A stretch of DNA of 64,000 nt from an uncultured Rhodospirillales bacterium (GTDB lineage Bacteria > Pseudomonadota > Alphaproteobacteria > RF32 > CAG-239), in NCBI GenBank assembly GCA_902778645.1, contig CACYYO010000001.1:2951-66950 (forward strand), read 5' to 3'. The position numbers and the translations under genes were made by a program. Shown here piece by piece: positions 5,103 to 64,000 of this stretch. Under the pieces are notes generated by a model, which was given only the letters and a program-made list of their open reading frames with translations, did no database searches and was not told where the DNA came from. The number at the start of each line of letters is the position of its first letter. The first letter of the stretch is position 1.

Positions 5103-6407
5103 CTATCGGTGTTTGCGGTTTAATTCTTTTTGAACGTATCGTCCTTGATAGAGATTTATACCAAGGGAGTTGCCTATTTCAATAGCTTTAGGGTCGTCGA
5201 CACGACAGAGAATCATCTTAGCTCGTTCAGCTTTATTAACATAATCACGAAAATGGCTGTCTTCATTGATAATATCTAAAAAAGACGGGTGCCAAATAAT
5301 TTTCATTAAATCTGAATTGAGATTCGCTCGGTTAATGTATTGCAATTTGTCAACCGTGATGCCGTCGATGCAAATTTTGTAACCACGATATTGAGCAAAG
5401 GCCTTTGCGAGGAGGTAAGCTTTTACATCGTTAAAAATATCAACAAGCTGCAGTTCTAAGATAATACTTGAGCGTAATGGCGGCGGAATACTTTCATCAA
5501 AGGCCAGAAATTCATCAGACAGAATGGTTGATACATTTAGGTTTAGACTGAAATTACTTACAAGAGAGCCGTCATCATGTTGACTGACGTGTGCCAAAAC
5601 CCGCTTGTCTAAAGTTTCTGTCAGGTGTAAAAACAGCCAAGGATCAGATGTTAAATCAATCTCAGGCATTAATGTGTCGCGTAAATCAGGAATAGAAACA
5701 AATACTTCTTCAAAAATCATTTGCGGGGCAGACTTTCCTATAATTGCGCAGACAGCCTGTCGTCGAATTAGGTTTGAGAAATCAACCTGTTGAAGGCTTT
5801 TTTGTACTTTATCAAGAATGAGCGGTGTCAGTTTGCGTAAAGGCTTTTTGTTTCCTCCCAGAACACTGACAAACTTTGTTGTTATATTTACTTTTGGTTC
5901 TGAGGGGGCTTGCGTTGTAAAAGGTGCCATATGTGTGATTTTATCACACAAATTAAGTAATGATGCAGGGGTTTCATATAATTTAAAAAACGGGGTTTCC
6001 AAAATGTTACTTTTTTGAGCTAAAGACATTTCCTCGTCAAAGGTAAAAGATAAGCGAATTAAAAGCGCTTGTAATTCATCATCCTTTTGTGCAGGAAAGG
6101 CTACTAAGACACTACTGTTGGCAAGTTCAAATATTTTGCCGCCGATTTGTTGCGCAAAATCTCGTAAAAAGGAGGTCGCAGCATTATTAAGTATGGAGAT
6201 GCTTTTGCTGTTTTTGAAAGCCGTCGTATCAATGAGCATTGCTTTAAGCGGTGTTTGAGCATCTATAGACTGTTGCAAATATTCGACAGGACCAAGTTCC
6301 TTGAAGGAAGGCGGAAGAGTTTCTTCTATTGTTTCTTCCGGATGGGTCTCAATTTTTTCTTGAGGTAAAGGCGTATTTTTTTTTGATTTAAAGAAAAACA
6401 TGGTCAC
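5103..6407 (-). CDS. degenerate EAL-like domain protein (paralog 1)
   Basis: The C-terminal half aligns by eye to the EAL motif series: FEEVFV (EAL), SLNLNVS (N), IILELQL (E), ICIDGITV (DDFG-like), MKIIW (KxD-like), LYQGRYV (QG). It shares the block DPWLFLHLTETLDKRVL with the upstream paralog. The track start is GTG at 6407, with an alternative ATG at 6401. Confidence 0.55.
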   Translation of the reverse strand: MTMFFFKSKKNTPLPQEKIETHPEETIEETLPPSFKELGPVEYLQQSIDAQTPLKAMLIDTTAFKNSKSISILNNAATSFLRDFAQQIGGKIFELANSSVLVAFPAQKDDELQALLIRLSFTFDEEMSLAQKSNILETPFFKLYETPASLLNLCDKITHMAPFTTQAPSEPKVNITTKFVSVLGGNKKPLRKLTPLILDKVQKSLQQVDFSNLIRRQAVCAIIGKSAPQMIFEEVFVSIPDLRDTLMPEIDLTSDPWLFLHLTETLDKRVLAHVSQHDDGSLVSNFSLNLNVSTILSDEFLAFDESIPPPLRSSIILELQLVDIFNDVKAYLLAKAFAQYRGYKICIDGITVDKLQYINRANLNSDLMKIIWHPSFLDIINEDSHFRDYVNKAERAKMILCRVDDPKAIEIGNSLGINLYQGRYVQKELNRKHR

Positions 6408-28192: not shown

Positions 28193-28194
28193 AA

Positions 28195-28412
28195 AAATGC
28201 GCAAGGTGAGTTTCTAGTGCAGATATTTCATAAATTATTCGGTCATGTACCTTCAAGTACACTCCCTTCATAATTTATTCAATATCTTACTATAAACATC
28301 ATCTATCGCATTTTTTGTGAGTTGCGGTAATTTTTTTCTCGACGCCTACTATTAGCCTCATTCTCCGAATTTTTTTAGATTGAATTGAAAACCAGGGCAG
28401 GTTTTGCACAGT
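28195..28412. repeat. long palindromic intergenic repeat, copy A (GTAC-N6-GTAC apex)
   Basis: Collinear with 33667-33893. In a gap-free hand alignment, 69 of 89 positions are identical between 28210-28298 and 33684-33772. The internal arms agatatttcataaattat / ataatttattcaatatct are near-complementary. Confidence 0.8.
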
Positions 28413-32351: not shown

Positions 32352-33668
32352 ATGAAGAAATTTACCTATTTAATTGCTTTGGTTTTAGGTTTGTTTGTAA
32401 CACCTGCCCGAGCAGAATTACAAATTGATGTTAATGGTGCAATGCGTGATCCGATGCCGATTGCTTTTCCGGAAATTATCCATGACGGGTTTTGGATCGG
32501 ACAGCAGGCCTCTAAAATCAGGGATGTGGTTATTGCTGATTTGGAGCGTTCTGGTTTGTTCTCCATTTTGCCTGAAAACAGCTATATTCAAACCCTAAAA
32601 GATATTAATGAACAGCCGGCGTTTGTTGATTGGAAGGCAATTAATGCTCAGGCTTTGGTCCAAAGTGCCATTTCTGAGCCGGATGAAAATCATTTGAAAG
32701 TTGAGTTCCGCTTGTGGGACGTGTTTGCCGAAAATCAATTAGATGGTCGCTCTTTTACAACAACTAAGGCAAATTGGCGTCGGATTGCTCATATTATTGC
32801 CGATGCTATTTATGAGCGTTTAACCGGTGAAAAAGGGTATTTTGATACACGTGTTGTCTATGTTTCCGAAACAGGCTCGGCAACGAATCGTATTAAACGT
32901 TTGGCCATTATGGATCAAGATGGTGAGAATCACAGATATTTGACTTCGTCATCATCTATGGCTTTGACACCTCGTTTCTCGCCTAATATGCAAAAAGTTG
33001 TTTATATGTCTTATGCCGGGGAGACGCCGCGGGTTTATATCTTGGATATTGAATCCGGTCGTCAGGAATTGTTGGGTAATTTCCCGGGGATGACATTTGC
33101 ACCGCGTTTCTCTCCGGATGGTCGAAAGGTTGTTTTGAGTTATGAATCCGGTGGTAAGAGTAATATCTATGAAATGGATTTGGCAACACGGACGAAAAAG
33201 CAACTGACCTTTGGCAGTGCGATTGATACGTCACCGAGCTATTCTCCAGACGGATCGCAGATTGTCTTTAACTCTGACAGAGCCGGTTCTCAGCAGTTGT
33301 ATGTTATGAACCGTGACGGGTCGGATGTTAAACGTATTACTTATGGCGGTGGACGTTATGCAACACCGGTTTGGTCGCCGCGTGGTGATTATATTGCCTT
33401 TACAAAAATGGCAGGTGGTCAATTCTATATCGGTGTGATGTTCCCTGATGGCAGCGGTGAACGTTTGCTTGCCAGCGGTTGGCTGGTTGAAGGTCCGACA
33501 TGGTCGCCGAATGGTCGTGTCTTGATGTACTTCCGTCAAGAACCAGGAACTTCTCGCAGTAATGCTCCGGTAAAACTTTACTCTATTGATCTGACCGGGT
33601 ACAATGAGAGAATGATGGTGACACCGGGGGAGGGGTCGGATCCAGCATGGTCCCCACTACTCCCTTAA
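32352..33668 (+). CDS. tolB: Tol-Pal system beta-propeller protein TolB
   Basis: Signal peptide [21 protein letters not shown], a TolB N-terminal domain, and repeated P.FSPDG/..WSP propeller blades. The start is moved to 32352. Confidence 0.93.
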
Positions 33669-33893
33669 AGATGTGCAAGATGTGTTTCTAGTGCAGATAC
33701 TTGAAAAATTGCTAAGTCATGTACCTCTATGTACACTCCTGTCGCAATTTCTCAAGTATCCTGCTATAAACAACATCTATCCCATCTTTGTGAGAAGGGG
33801 TATTTTCTTGAGTTGTTTTTTTAGATTTATTTTCCGAATTTTTTATGAAAAAAATGCGCAAAATTGGAGATTAGGCAGATTTTTGCCAGTCTT
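33667..33893. repeat. long palindromic intergenic repeat, copy B (GTAC-N6-GTAC apex)
   Basis: It shares exact blocks with copy A: gtttctagtgcagata, gtcatgtacct, gtacactcc, ctataaaca, tttgtgag, tccgaatttttt. The arms agatacttgaaaaattgc / gcaatttctcaagtatc are near-complementary. Confidence 0.8.
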
Positions 33894-60309: not shown

Positions 60310-60332
60310 AATTTGCAAAAGAGACTTTATGT

Positions 60333-60438
60333 TGGCGCTTTTTTCGCTTAGGTACTTTTTTGTACACCGCGCTCAAAAAGCGCTCAACAGCAAGCCTCTT
60401 TATCAAATTTTATGAGGATATCTTTATCAAATTTTATG
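60333..60438. repeat. short palindromic repeat copy (GTAC-N6-GTAC apex) plus an 18-bp direct repeat in the nusA-ylxR spacer
   Basis: The sequence ttggcgcttttttcgcttagGTACttttttGTACaccgcgctcaaaaagcgctcaa has complementary outer arms. It is followed by tctttatcaaattttatg at 60397-60414 and again at 60421-60438. Confidence 0.7.
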
Positions 60439-60458: not shown

Positions 60459-61055
60459 TTGAAAAAGAATGAGGACATAACGCGGAAGTGCATTGTAACA
60501 GGCGAGATTAAGGATAAATCTCAGCTGTTGCGTTTTGTGCGGACGCCGGATAATCAGATTGTTCCGGATTTGAATAAAAAACTTCCGGGCAAGGGGATTT
60601 ATGTTTCAAATTCGTATGCACTTCTCAAACAAGCAATTGAGAAAAGTTTGTTTGCTAAGGTTTTGAAAAAAAATGTGAAAGCAAATAAGGATTTGTTGCA
60701 AACGGTTGAAAATGTCTTGCATAAAAATGCGGTGAGTGCTATTTCTTTAGCAAAGAAAGCCGGTGGGGTTGTGATTGGTTTGGATAAAGTGTTGGAGGCA
60801 CTGAAAGCTGATCAGGTTTCCTTTTTGTTGGAGGCTGCAGATGCCGGTCAGGATGGTATGAAAAAGTTGCAAAAATATACGGAAAGCATGCTGACATATC
60901 GTCTGTTTAGTATTGAGGAGTTGGATAAGGCATTAGATAAAGTTAATACGGTTTATTTGGCATTTTTGAAGAAAGAGATGTCAAAGATGGTTCAAGATAA
61001 TTTTGAAAAGCTATCGGTATTTTTAAAAGATAAAAAAGATGGAGATGAATTTTAA
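60459..61055 (+). CDS. YlxR (DUF448) RNA-binding protein fused to an L7Ae-like domain
   Basis: [41 protein letters not shown], with a C-terminal [25 protein letters not shown] start; located between nusA and infB. Confidence 0.85.
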
Positions 61056-63538
61056 TGACAGATGAAAAAGCAGGTAAAAAATTAACATTATCTACTAAGT
61101 CTACTCTGACACTCAAAAATTTGGGAGATCGGGCTGCTAAGTCTGACGGTAAAAAAGTTGTGCAGGTGGAAGTCCGCAAAAAAAGAGTTATTGCTCCGGT
61201 TGCCTCGGCAGAACCAAAGGTTCAAATAGATGAAGCAACAGCGCAAAAATTGAAATTGCTCGAAAAAGCTAAGGAGCACGAGGCTAAACGTCAAAAAGAA
61301 GAAGAAGAGAAAGAGCGTCTTCGTCAACAAGAAAGAGAACAAGAGGCTCTTGAGGCTAAAGAGAAAGCCGAGCGTGAGGAAGAAGTTCGGAGACAACAAG
61401 AGGCAAAGTCGCAAAAAGAATCTGCTCAAGTAGCTCAAAAGAGTCAAAAAACAGAAAAAGAAACCTCTTTCAGACAAGAAGAAAAAGTTTTTGTTAAGCC
61501 CAAAAAGTCAAAAGATTATGATGATGACGACGATGAAGATGAGGAGCGCTTCGATAAATCATCTAAAAAAGTTTTGAGTAAAGAAGAGACTTTTGAGCAA
61601 GAGCGCAAGAAAATTATGAAACGCAGCTTTGAGCCTCAGCGTCGCGGTGGTAAGCTCAACATGAACAGCCTGATGGGGAGCAGTGATGAAGATGATGATT
61701 ACGGGTTCGGTGCGCCTCGTCGTCGGTTTAAGAAAAAGCAACCTAAACCGGTTCAGGAGCAAGCGCCGCAAGAAAAAGTTATTAAAGAGGTTGTTATTCC
61801 TGAAATCATTACCGTTCAAGAGCTGGCAAATCGTATGGCAGAAAAGAGCGCCGTTGTTATCAAAAAATTAATGGCTCTCGGGGTTATGGCAACGATTAAT
61901 CAACCGATTGACGCGGATACCGCACAGATTGTCGTTGAGGAGTTAGGTCATAAGTTTAAGAGAATTGCCGATAGTGATGTTGAATTAACCTTAAAAGGTG
62001 ATGAGGATACAGAGAAAGATTTGTTGCCCCGCCCGCCGGTTGTTACGGTTATGGGACACGTTGACCATGGTAAAACCTCTTTGCTTGATGCTCTGCGTGA
62101 GACAAATGTTGCTGCACGTGAGGCCGGTGGTATTACCCAACATATCGGTGCTTATCAAATTGAAACTAAAGACGGGCAAAAGATTACCTTTATTGATACG
62201 CCGGGACACGAAGCGTTTTCAGAAATGCGTGCTCGTGGTGCAAAAGTAACAGATATTGTTGTTTTGGTCGTGGCCGCTAACGATGGTATTATGCCGCAAA
62301 CAGTTGAGGCTATTCGTCACGCACAAGCAGCTGAAGTTCCTATTGTGGTGGCTATTAACAAGATTGATTTGCCCGGTGCCGACCCGATGCGCGTCAAGAC
62401 AGAACTCCTTAATCATGGGATTGCCGTTGAGGAAATGGGTGGAGAATCCCTGTGTGCGGAAGTTTCTGCCAAGAAGCGTATCAATATTGATAAATTGCTT
62501 GAAGCTATTTTGTTGCAGGCAGAAATTTTGGATCTGAAAGCAAATCCGAATCGTATGGCAGAGGGTGCCGTTGTTGAGGCTAAGATGGAAAAAGGTCGCG
62601 GTTCGGTTGCAACAGTGTTGGTTCAGAAAGGAACATTACATGTCGGTGATATTATTATTGCCGGTAAAGAATGGGGGCATGTTCGTGCGCTTTTGAATGA
62701 GAATGGGCATAAAGTTCATGAAGCCGGTCCGGCAACACCTGTGGAAGTCTTGGGGTTGCAGGGAACGCCGGCGGCCGGTGATAATTTTGCGGTGGCCGTT
62801 GATGAAAACCAAGCGCGTGAAATTACAAGCTATCGTATTCGTAAAGAACGTGATGCTAAGTTGGTAAAAAGTGCTAAATCGGCGATGGAACAAATGCTCG
62901 ATAAAATTAAATCCGGTGAGATTAAACATTTGCCGATTATTATCAAAGCAGATGTTCAAGGTTCTATTGAGGCAATTGAGGGGACGCTGAATAAATTCTC
63001 GAATAATGAGGTCAGTGTGCAAATTTTGCACTCGGCGGTCGGTCCGATTTCCGAATCTGATGTGACGCTGGCTAAGGCATCTAATGCGTTTATTATCGGT
63101 TTTAATGTTCGCGCTATCCCGCAGGCTCGTGATATGGCACGTCGAGATGGTATAGACATTCGCTATTATTCAATTATCTATGATGTTGCTGATGATGTGA
63201 AGAAAGCTTTGGAAGGTATGCTGTCTCCGGAACTGAAAGAAAAGATTTTAGGTTATGCAGAAATTCGTTCTGTCTTTAATATCACCGGTGTCGGTCGTGT
63301 GGCCGGCTGTATGGTGACAGAGGGTCTGGTTAAGCGCGGTTGTAAAGTTCGGTTGCTTCGTGACAACGTTGTTATTCATGACGGAAGTCTTGGACAACTA
63401 AAACGCTTTAAGGATGATGTTAAGGAAGTTAAAGACGGTTATGAGTGCGGTATGAGTTTTGAGAATTATAATGACATTCAGGTCGGAGATTCGATAGAGT
63501 GTTATGAGATTGAAACTATCGCCGCTAAGCTTGATTAA
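61055..63538 (+). CDS. infB: translation initiation factor IF-2
   Basis: E/K-rich N-terminal region, a G domain ([32 protein letters not shown]) and the C-terminal domains. Its start overlaps the upstream stop by 1 nt. Confidence 0.97.
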
Positions 63539-63661
63539 TGGATTATTAGGGCGTTGTCTGCAGGTCGAAAGTGTCCTCACGTACTTTTTTGTACGCTCCG
63601 GTACTTTCGCCTTTGACGCCTACTACTAATCTCATTAATCAAGATTAATGGATTATTAGGG
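63533..63661. repeat. short palindromic repeat copy (GTAC-N6-GTAC apex) bracketed by a 19-bp direct duplication in the infB-rbfA spacer
   Basis: gattaatggattattaggg occurs at 63533-63551 and at 63643-63661. Between the two copies lies ...gtcgaaagtgtcctcacGTACttttttGTACgctccggtactttcgcctttgacgcctactactaatctcatt... The gacgcctacta..ctcatt module recurs at 28341-28362. Confidence 0.8.
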
Positions 63662-63698
63662 TGTTTCGTATTTTCTTATTACAAAGAAAGATAAAAAA

Positions 63699-64000
63699 AT
63701 GGCTATTAAGGAACAATCGCAAAGACAACTTCGGGTCGGGCAAGAGATTAAGAAGATTATTGCCGCGGAGATTGATCATGAGGAAGTGCGTAATTTGGAA
63801 GGAATTAACACGATGGTGACGATCACTGAAGTGCAGATTTCTCCGGATTTGAAGTATGCTAATGTCTATTTTATTACTTCTCACAGCGACAAAAATGAGC
63901 AAGTACGCGAAGCTTTGCAATTGGCCGCAAGCCATTTTCGCAAAGTCGTCGGACGCCGGACAACCTTGCGCTATGTGCCGGAATTTGTGTTTAGAATAGA
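63699..64000 (+). CDS. rbfA: ribosome-binding factor A (3' end beyond the window)
   Basis: Hand translation gives MAIKEQSQRQLRVGQEIKKIIAAEIDHEEVRNLEGINTMVTITEVQISPDLKYANVYF..., which is typical RbfA, downstream of infB. It is not in the track because it has no in-window stop. Confidence 0.85.
   Translation, partial: MAIKEQSQRQLRVGQEIKKIIAAEIDHEEVRNLEGINTMVTITEVQISPDLKYANVYFITSHSDKNEQVREALQLAASHFRKVVGRRTTLRYVPEFVFRI

Follow-up and report, generated by a model that had tools for sequence, protein, structure and literature searches.

The spacer between infB and rbfA in a gut alphaproteobacterium contains a 19-bp sequence repeated in direct orientation, and analysis of the 64-kb stretch of contig in which it lies (ENA ERZ1029112; all 64,000 nt of it are referred to here as the window) revealed that the repeat is the left arm of the palindromic element that it flanks, and not duplicated target DNA. 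This element, which we call P, is an ERIC-like imperfect palindrome located at the end of infB in the rimP-nusA-ylxR-infB-rbfA operon, and the second copy of the repeat is a second left arm positioned directly after the right arm of P. What had appeared to be a puzzling 19-bp target duplication in a core operon has an ordinary explanation, i.e., two copies of the repeat's own arm, and recombination between such arms would toggle a 110-bp hairpin among strains of one gut species.

The repeat was brought to attention by an earlier note, made from the letters of the window, and its description of the arrangement proved accurate. The 19-mer GATTAATGGATTATTAGGG is present at 63533-63551 and 63643-63661, 110 bp apart, and the match extends to 22 of 23 positions when both copies are lengthened (GGGCGTT in the first against GGGTGTT in the second; Table 1). 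The infB TAA stop (63536-63538) lies within copy 1, whose first six bases are the last infB codon, GAT, and that stop. There is no third match to the 19-mer in the window, even at up to 3 mismatches, and two matches arose in 0 of 100 shuffles. The apex GTACTTTTTTGTAC, which the note had seen between the two copies (63581-63594), recurs after nusA at 60352-60365, and GTAC-N6-GTAC occurs 5 times in the window versus 0.13 expected. The module GACGCCTACTACTAATCTCATT (63615-63636) does match 28341-28362 at 19 of 22 positions.

Our view of how these pieces belong together comes from the predicted RNA fold, in which GTAC-T6-GTAC is the tip of a hairpin. P (~114 nt) folds at -52.5 to -54.2 kcal/mol (z = -5.6 versus shuffles), and a covariance model from 109 copies in other phyla matched 63525-63648 with 66 bits (E = 7e-12). 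Copy 2 begins at the base immediately after the right arm, so that the layout reads arm, loop, arm', arm; it matches copy 1 at 22 of 23 positions and is several bulges away from being the complement of the right arm. With its 114 nt, 41% G+C and conservation at the apex, P also has the general properties of a MITE (miniature inverted-repeat transposable element): terminal inverted repeats, small size, no coding capacity and presence/absence polymorphism. In the 64-kb window, where no dedicated test for one was made, no insertion sequence was seen that shares these ends, has a transposase and could be the parent. Rfam models at the gathering threshold found only tRNA in the window and nothing relevant to P, and a permissive Rfam search of 63480-63720 (E up to 10) gave chance-level matches only. 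No terminator-like site, i.e., a short GC-rich hairpin followed by a T run as in an intrinsic terminator, was called in 63500-63700.

Table 1. Features of the infB-rbfA spacer and of related palindromes elsewhere in the window.
Feature	Position	Strand	Remarks
infB (initiation factor IF-2, 827 aa)	61055-63538	+	open reading frame list; Pfam IF-2 domains
rbfA	63700-64000	+	truncated by the window end
ERIC-like imperfect palindrome P, from CTTGATTAATGG to CATTAATCAAG	63530-63643	+	single long hairpin in the RNA fold
Direct-repeat copy 1, outer left arm GATTAATGGATTATTAGGGCGTT	63533-63555	+	single copy conserved in L002 and L003
Apex core CCTCACGTAC-TTTTTT-GTACGCTCCGG	63575-63601	+	5-bp CGTAC/GTACG stem, 4x4 internal loop CUCA/CUCC
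Outer right arm, the module of the earlier note plus AATCAA	63615-63642	+	pairs with copy 1, alternatively with copy 2
Direct-repeat copy 2 GATTAATGGATTATTAGGGTGTT, solo second left arm	63643-63665	+	absent in L002, L003, L011 and L108
GTGTTTC + GTATTTTC	63661-63675	+	matches the left and right ends of a D1-type element
Second palindrome, past the nusA stop and sharing the GTACTTTTTTGTAC apex	60318-60402	+	
TCTTTATCAAATTTTATG twice, 24-bp period	60397-60438	+	duplicates the right-arm end (last 18 nt) of the nusA palindrome
D1-type palindrome (apex GTACCTTCAAGTAC), then half-copy of a P-type right arm (28311-28362)	28193-28375	+	
Second D1-type palindrome (apex GTACCTCTATGTAC)	33667-33844	+	

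The infB-rbfA spacers were compared across relatives at graded InfB distances (loci collected for comparison are cited by L numbers), whose InfB sequences carry the labels "Alphaproteobacteria bacterium" or "Azospirillum sp. 47_25". Closest to the window are three conspecific contigs, L007, L012 and L013, with nearly identical InfB (listed as 100%) and nucleotide identities of 97.5-99%. In all three, infB runs into GATTAATGGATTATTAGGGCGTT and then straight into TCGTATTTTC and on to rbfA, i.e., there is one copy of the 19/23-mer and exactly 110 bp are missing, which is the single-copy form that the earlier note had expected of an empty site. At the next distance, L002 (InfB 93%) has a hairpin at the same site that is identical to that of the window at 108 of 108 bases and is without copy 2; its right arm runs on as CAGGCTTAGC, complementary to infB codons, and a D1-type second palindrome comes next. 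The infB codons adjoining the element differ between L002 and the window at ~5 of 30 positions. Over the longer tract that was aligned (window 63527-63643 versus L002:5464-5580), the palindrome is 100% identical and the surrounding locus ~81% identical, with the identity stopping within a few bases of the palindrome ends, and the nusA-type palindrome differs by ~8% between the two lineages. Such identity suggests either a recent exchange or very strong constraint.

More diverged relatives also have the hairpin. L003 (InfB 90%) carries it at the same site with a single arm and no copy 2, and with paired arm changes (GGA/TCT to GGG/CCT). In addition, a synonymous change in an infB Lys codon, AAG to AAA, is offset by CTT to TTT in the right arm (L003:5464-5475 and 5575-5586); the hairpin stem reaches ~12 nt into the infB coding sequence with its pairing maintained between L003 and the window. 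The more distant L108 has a related hairpin directly after InfB, with a single arm copy followed by a second element, and L008 (InfB 89%) has nested elements and a right-arm remnant. InfB ends in AKLD* where the element is present (window 63530-63538) and in AKL* at the element-less sites of L005 (83%; L005:5475-5484) and L009 (82%; L009:3960-3966), which lack the 19-mer. A scan of JGI metagenomes for further alleles in which the infB end is joined to the 19-mer gave no match. In one further locus, L011, infB of the window species and the hairpin's left half are joined to an L003-like right arm, leader and rbfA (L011:3979-4120). Either the strain is a recombinant or the assembly is chimeric, the latter being possible because the identical stretches are longer than the assembler's k of 87, and the locus was not used as evidence.

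Taken with the fold, these spacers establish that the 19/23-mer is the left arm of P itself. In the hairpin, copy 1 makes up the left arm and the module is its pairing partner; L002, L003 and L108 have the hairpin in the same place with one arm copy; homologous arms TAATRGRTTATTAGGGYGTTGTCT flank related hairpins in the nusA-ylxR spacer, where they form the left arm in L003, L005 (as two tandem copies) and L008; and the element-less lineages end InfB with AKL* and not AKLD*. The GAT-TAA of the 19-mer, which gives InfB its extra Asp codon and its stop, was probably brought or created by the element. Since the arm belongs to the element, and the element was at the infB-rbfA site before the species arose, the "empty" alleles of the three conspecific contigs are solo arms left behind by loss of an element and not virgin sites.

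The insertion footprint described in the earlier note was therefore partly right: the 110-bp unit bounded by the repeat is a real indel, but the repeat is not duplicated target DNA, and the unusual insertion or repair mechanism that a 19-bp duplication had seemed to call for is unneeded, as the length of the repeat is that of the arm homology. That P arrived by true transposition with a long target-site duplication is now improbable, although alleles that look empty do exist and there is a precedent of sorts in YPAL, for which duplications of a variable 3-26 bp have been reported adjoining dyad symmetries (PMC2229807). The repeat at L061, described below, also includes ~27 nt of a gene end that is not part of the element. 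Apart from the identity of the 19-mer with the element's own arm, the reading is confronted with an insert (63556-63642, were the repeat the target) that lacks terminal inverted repeats, with sister lineages that hold the element without a second copy, which largely refutes it, and with a presence of the element at the site that predates the species. A classical target-site duplication was likewise rejected, the repeat being the left arm and the element-less sites lacking the 19-mer, and so was insertion of a symmetric element with duplication of TA, since the 110-bp unit, however it is permuted cyclically, never has inverted ends with TA on either side.

The arrangement in the window is real and not an artefact of assembly because a second assembler recovered it: in the Logan assembly of run ERR3224597 (L151), a stretch of 7,042 nt that includes the entire spacer is identical to the window. 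An artefact of de Bruijn assembly at the repeat is scarcely credible in any case, as the junction between arm' and copy 2 and the T variant of copy 2 occur in no other allele and so could not have been built from other strains. What can be said for it is that L011 resembles a chimera, or a recombinant, joined within the element, and that just past infB the L009 and L010 contigs come to an end. These last two are independent Logan contigs of the 82% lineage, both ending 47 nt after infB, and their common break point would fit a repeat that interrupts assembly in the infB-rbfA spacer.

If copy 2 is a second left arm, how did it come to stand alone, and how do the two alleles of the species relate? 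We favor, with moderate confidence, a resident ERIC-type, MITE-like repeat of ~114 nt in which copy 2 is a tandem-arm remnant and from which the 110-bp unit has been lost by exchange between arms. Copy 2 would most likely be the residue left when the body was deleted from a second element in tandem, or from a slipped re-copy of the arm. Near-identical direct repeats around a strong hairpin are classically prone to slipped-strand or homologous deletion, and such an exchange between the 22/23 arms would remove exactly 110 bp and leave a solo arm, converting the window allele into that of the three conspecific contigs, which is the most likely direction of the event. The reverse may instead have occurred, with a solo arm re-filled through arm homology to yield the same pair of alleles. 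Whichever the direction, the repeat owes its length to arm homology and not to a staggered cut.

Several observations have a bearing on the tandem origin of copy 2. A second palindrome follows P at the infB-rbfA locus in both L002 and L108. In L002 it is a full D1-type element, running GCAAGAT|GTGTTTC|TAGAG...CATCTATC|GTATTTTC (compare window 33667-33789), and judging from these ends, the short stretch at the end of copy 2 in the window (GTGTTTC + GTATTTTC; Table 1) is possibly the joined ends of a deleted second D1-type palindrome. Duplications of the slippage type did occur next to hairpins in the lineage of the window, since the 24-bp duplication at the nusA palindrome is private to it. Two other routes were considered and rejected: fold-back copying of the right arm, as it is copy 1 that copy 2 reproduces (22/23) and not the right arm's complement, and unequal exchange at an AAGCTT palindrome, as the expected GCTT junction is absent.

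There are, however, points that weigh against long residence followed by deletion. The window strain is the outgroup to the three solo-arm strains, so that the strain tree leaves the event unrooted. All three solo-arm alleles carry C (GGGCGTT) where copy 2 of the window has T, and a simple deletion consequently needs either an exchange within the final 3 bases or a C-to-T change afterwards. A palindrome that is 100% identical between lineages at a locus that is ~81% identical fits recent arrival better than long residence. The repeat starts with GAT, which is outside the conserved arm of the family and argues for local duplication over an independent second insertion, and no intermediate allele documenting the rise of copy 2 was found among the loci collected.

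Some of the same observations lend interest to re-insertion by arm homology, in which the element was lost to give a solo arm of the L007 type and a copy of P, whether from a different locus or a different lineage, was then re-integrated through the 23-bp arm to give exactly the window's layout of arm, loop, arm', arm. This is doubtful, yet it would explain why 108 of 108 bases of P are shared with the lineage of L002, with identity ending near the palindrome ends, in lineages whose nusA-type palindromes have diverged by ~8%, and why the solo-arm alleles have the C variant of copy 1; the pattern of a full element plus a solo left arm also recurs elsewhere. On the other hand, re-insertion requires an intermediate of ~110 nt that is circular or one-ended, a form never yet demonstrated, no donor copy was seen in the 64-kb window, and two steps, loss and regain, are needed versus one for deletion. 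Deletion by arm exchange remains our preferred account.

The position of P across the infB stop invites an explanation at the level of RNA. A ribosome terminating at this stop would have to open the left arm, and in the window strain the freed right arm could then re-pair with copy 2. In the model fold with the left arm blocked, the energy was -42.6 kcal/mol with copy 2 available versus -27.0 with copy 2 also blocked, i.e., copy 2 would offer the right arm an alternative hairpin of -15.6 kcal/mol. Copy 2 might in this manner be a selected RNA switch that recaptures the AU-rich right arm and modulates the access of RNases, or else read-through into rbfA. For ERIC in Yersinia, refolding induced by the ribosome is reported to uncover an RNase E site within the 3' arm (De Gregorio 2005, cited through PMC2229807), and at least three of the five cases of a full element plus solo arm lie at a stop codon. 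A selected role for copy 2 is nonetheless unlikely because copy 2 is absent from all sister lineages. With the whole unit absent from conspecifics as well, it would seem dispensable and recent, and as the spacer has no called terminator-like site, we regard such a switch as very improbable.

The layout of the window, a full element plus the left arm only, is not confined to this species. All collected loci were scanned for arms repeated outside the element, and four loci besides the window had it: L143, L148, L039 (a metagenome-assembled genome, or MAG, of Eubacteriales) and L061 (a MAG of Rokubacteria). The solo left arms are ~38 nt in L143, ~35 nt in L148 and 42 nt in L039, and the 41 nt in L061 consist of ~27 nt of the upstream gene end with its TGA stop and 15 nt of arm. 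On the minus strand of L061 (~1300-1800), the gene-end codons plus TGA, GGTCAAGAAGCGCTGACGGCCGG, occur three times in direct orientation: one occurrence precedes the full element, one a degenerate left arm and one the downstream flank. Full tandem arrays were found at seven loci, and outside these arrays none of the collected loci had the mirror layout, i.e., a right arm only, upstream of a full element. Five left-arm cases against none mirrored are suggestive of a directional process, without amounting to proof.

The apex of P has an even wider distribution. The exact pattern CCTCACGTAC-N6/7-GTACGCTCCGG, with 21 specified bases, was run on one genome per species and matched in at least 120 genome stretches (L014-L133) from many phyla, with several matches per MAG. 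The matches listed include Gammaproteobacteria, Burkholderiales, Nitrospirota, Rokubacteria, Binatia, Myxococcota, Bdellovibrionales, Acidobacteriota, Chlorobi, Bacteroidota, Bacillota (including isolate genomes of Bacillus relatives) and gut Alphaproteobacteria. Each is the tip of an imperfect palindrome of 100-150 nt, whose arms have the base composition of the host and are taxon-specific, yet have in common GCGTTG on the left and CGCCTTG on the right. The consensus fold has the 5-bp CGTAC/GTACG stem, the 4x4 loop CUCA/CUCC and, adjoining these, a stem in which compensatory changes abound (pair counts GC 36, CG 24, AU 19). Orientation relative to neighboring genes is even (24 versus 21), which argues for a mobile or DNA-level element over an RNA acting from one strand, and a one-strand RNA function for the whole family is accordingly unsupported. 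In copies from gut and rumen metagenomes the termini are ACTCGTATAATGG...CATTCTCCGAGT, and those of L135-L149 usually start 3-10 nt after a TAA stop (TAA-AACTCG-TATAATGG...), a placement that suggests a preference for gene 3' ends. No description of the cross-phylum core was found in the literature, and a search with the core sequence gave unrelated primer matches only. A survey of 183,232 genomes reported no bacterial MITE cluster across phyla at 95% identity (PMC11602168).

Elsewhere in the window, the duplication of the right-arm end at the nusA palindrome is private to the window strain, being a single copy in L007, L011, L013 and L002. The two D1-type regions (28193-28375 and 33667-33844) form a pair of composite repeats of ~180 bp, each a D1-type palindrome with a GTAC-N6-GTAC tip plus flank. 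The match of the module at 28341-28362 is explained by the half-copy of a P-type right arm in the flank of the first of these.

Of the known families, ERIC/IRU (RU-1) is the one that P most brings to mind, and we consider P to be ERIC-like, a new and distant variant that is not filed as ERIC proper. ERIC is similar to P in size (~114-127 nt) and in being an imperfect palindrome that forms one long hairpin. ERIC and the P family are both multi-copy and intergenic, often just past stop codons, and occur in both orientations. ERIC has TA at its termini, and in the P family the conserved arms start TAATGG and end CATTA; a clean pair of filled and virgin sites with a TA duplication was not found among the loci compared. 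The centers appear to be built alike, ...CAG TCA CTTAC TTAT GTAAG CTC CTG... in ERIC and ...TC CTCA CGTAC N6-7 GTACG CTCC GG... in the P family, and both appear to have the arm motifs CATsTGCnGCGTT on the left and CGCCTT on the right; e.g., a copy of ERIC from E. coli has the center TCA-CTTAC-TTAT-GTAAG-CTC-CTGG with CATGTGCTGCGTT and CGCCTT in its arms. Aligned to ERIC, the element of the window agreed only at its apex, in 20 of 21 aligned bases (23 columns, including a loop gap of 2 bases), and its outer arms have no sequence in common with ERIC. Against ERIC, 114 copies of the P family gave a best score of 36 versus a shuffled maximum of 23.3 +/- 2.1 (top 29), the arms alone gave z of ~3-4.5 with cross-arm controls at z < 2, and the covariance model aligned ERIC in exact register, if weakly (7.4 bits, E = 0.097 in 644 nt). 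An nhmmer profile of the cross-phylum copies found the window copy and not ERIC. The two also differ in host range, since ERIC has been described only in Enterobacteriaceae and Vibrionaceae (PMC10969869), whereas P is in an uncultured gut alphaproteobacterium and its core in many phyla. An effect on mRNA stability through ribosome-driven refolding has been reported for ERIC next to a stop codon (PMC2229807).

A near-invariant ERIC-like core beyond the enterobacteria and vibrios would, if true, point to a shared partner, be it a protein or other cellular machinery. Strain typing has relied on ERIC repeats for decades, and a core of such breadth would open the old question of their movement and function to comparative genomics, through gene families that co-occur with it. 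More speculatively, the ERIC center, a 5-bp CGUAC hairpin on a pyrimidine-rich CUCA/CUCC loop, might be the recognition module of one cross-phylum class of elements, with the one-sided layout of a full element plus a solo left arm reflecting directional copying initiated at the left arm or arm-guided homing, or alternatively an RNA switch that senses the ribosome at stop codons. We consider this an unlikely proposal, but were it true, the repeat of 19-23 bp would be a by-product of the mechanism and not an accident.

Other repeats resemble P in part. The Correia elements of Neisseria also contain GTAC-N5-GTAC and CAGGACAAGGCG. REP/BIME and REPIN sequences are extragenic palindromes that form tandem arrays at gene 3' ends, but REP, which goes with a RAYT gene, has GC-rich stems of 20-40 nt with a conserved foot, whereas the P family has a conserved apex; membership of REP/BIME was rejected for an element of 114 nt that is 41% G+C and conserved at its apex. 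Tn10-type precise excision, slipped-strand deletion and the formation of solo long terminal repeats have in common direct repeats that flank an inverted repeat and of which one copy remains. They are possible models for the event proposed here, with the difference that the direct repeats in the window are arms of the element and not target duplications. YPAL/RU-2 of Yersinia, compared by description only, is also a palindromic intergenic repeat reported to have unusually long and variable direct duplications, which lie at dyad symmetries or beside them; close relatives differ in whether a site is filled or empty (PMC2229807). Unlike in YPAL, the stretch that is repeated in the infB-rbfA spacer is part of the element itself.

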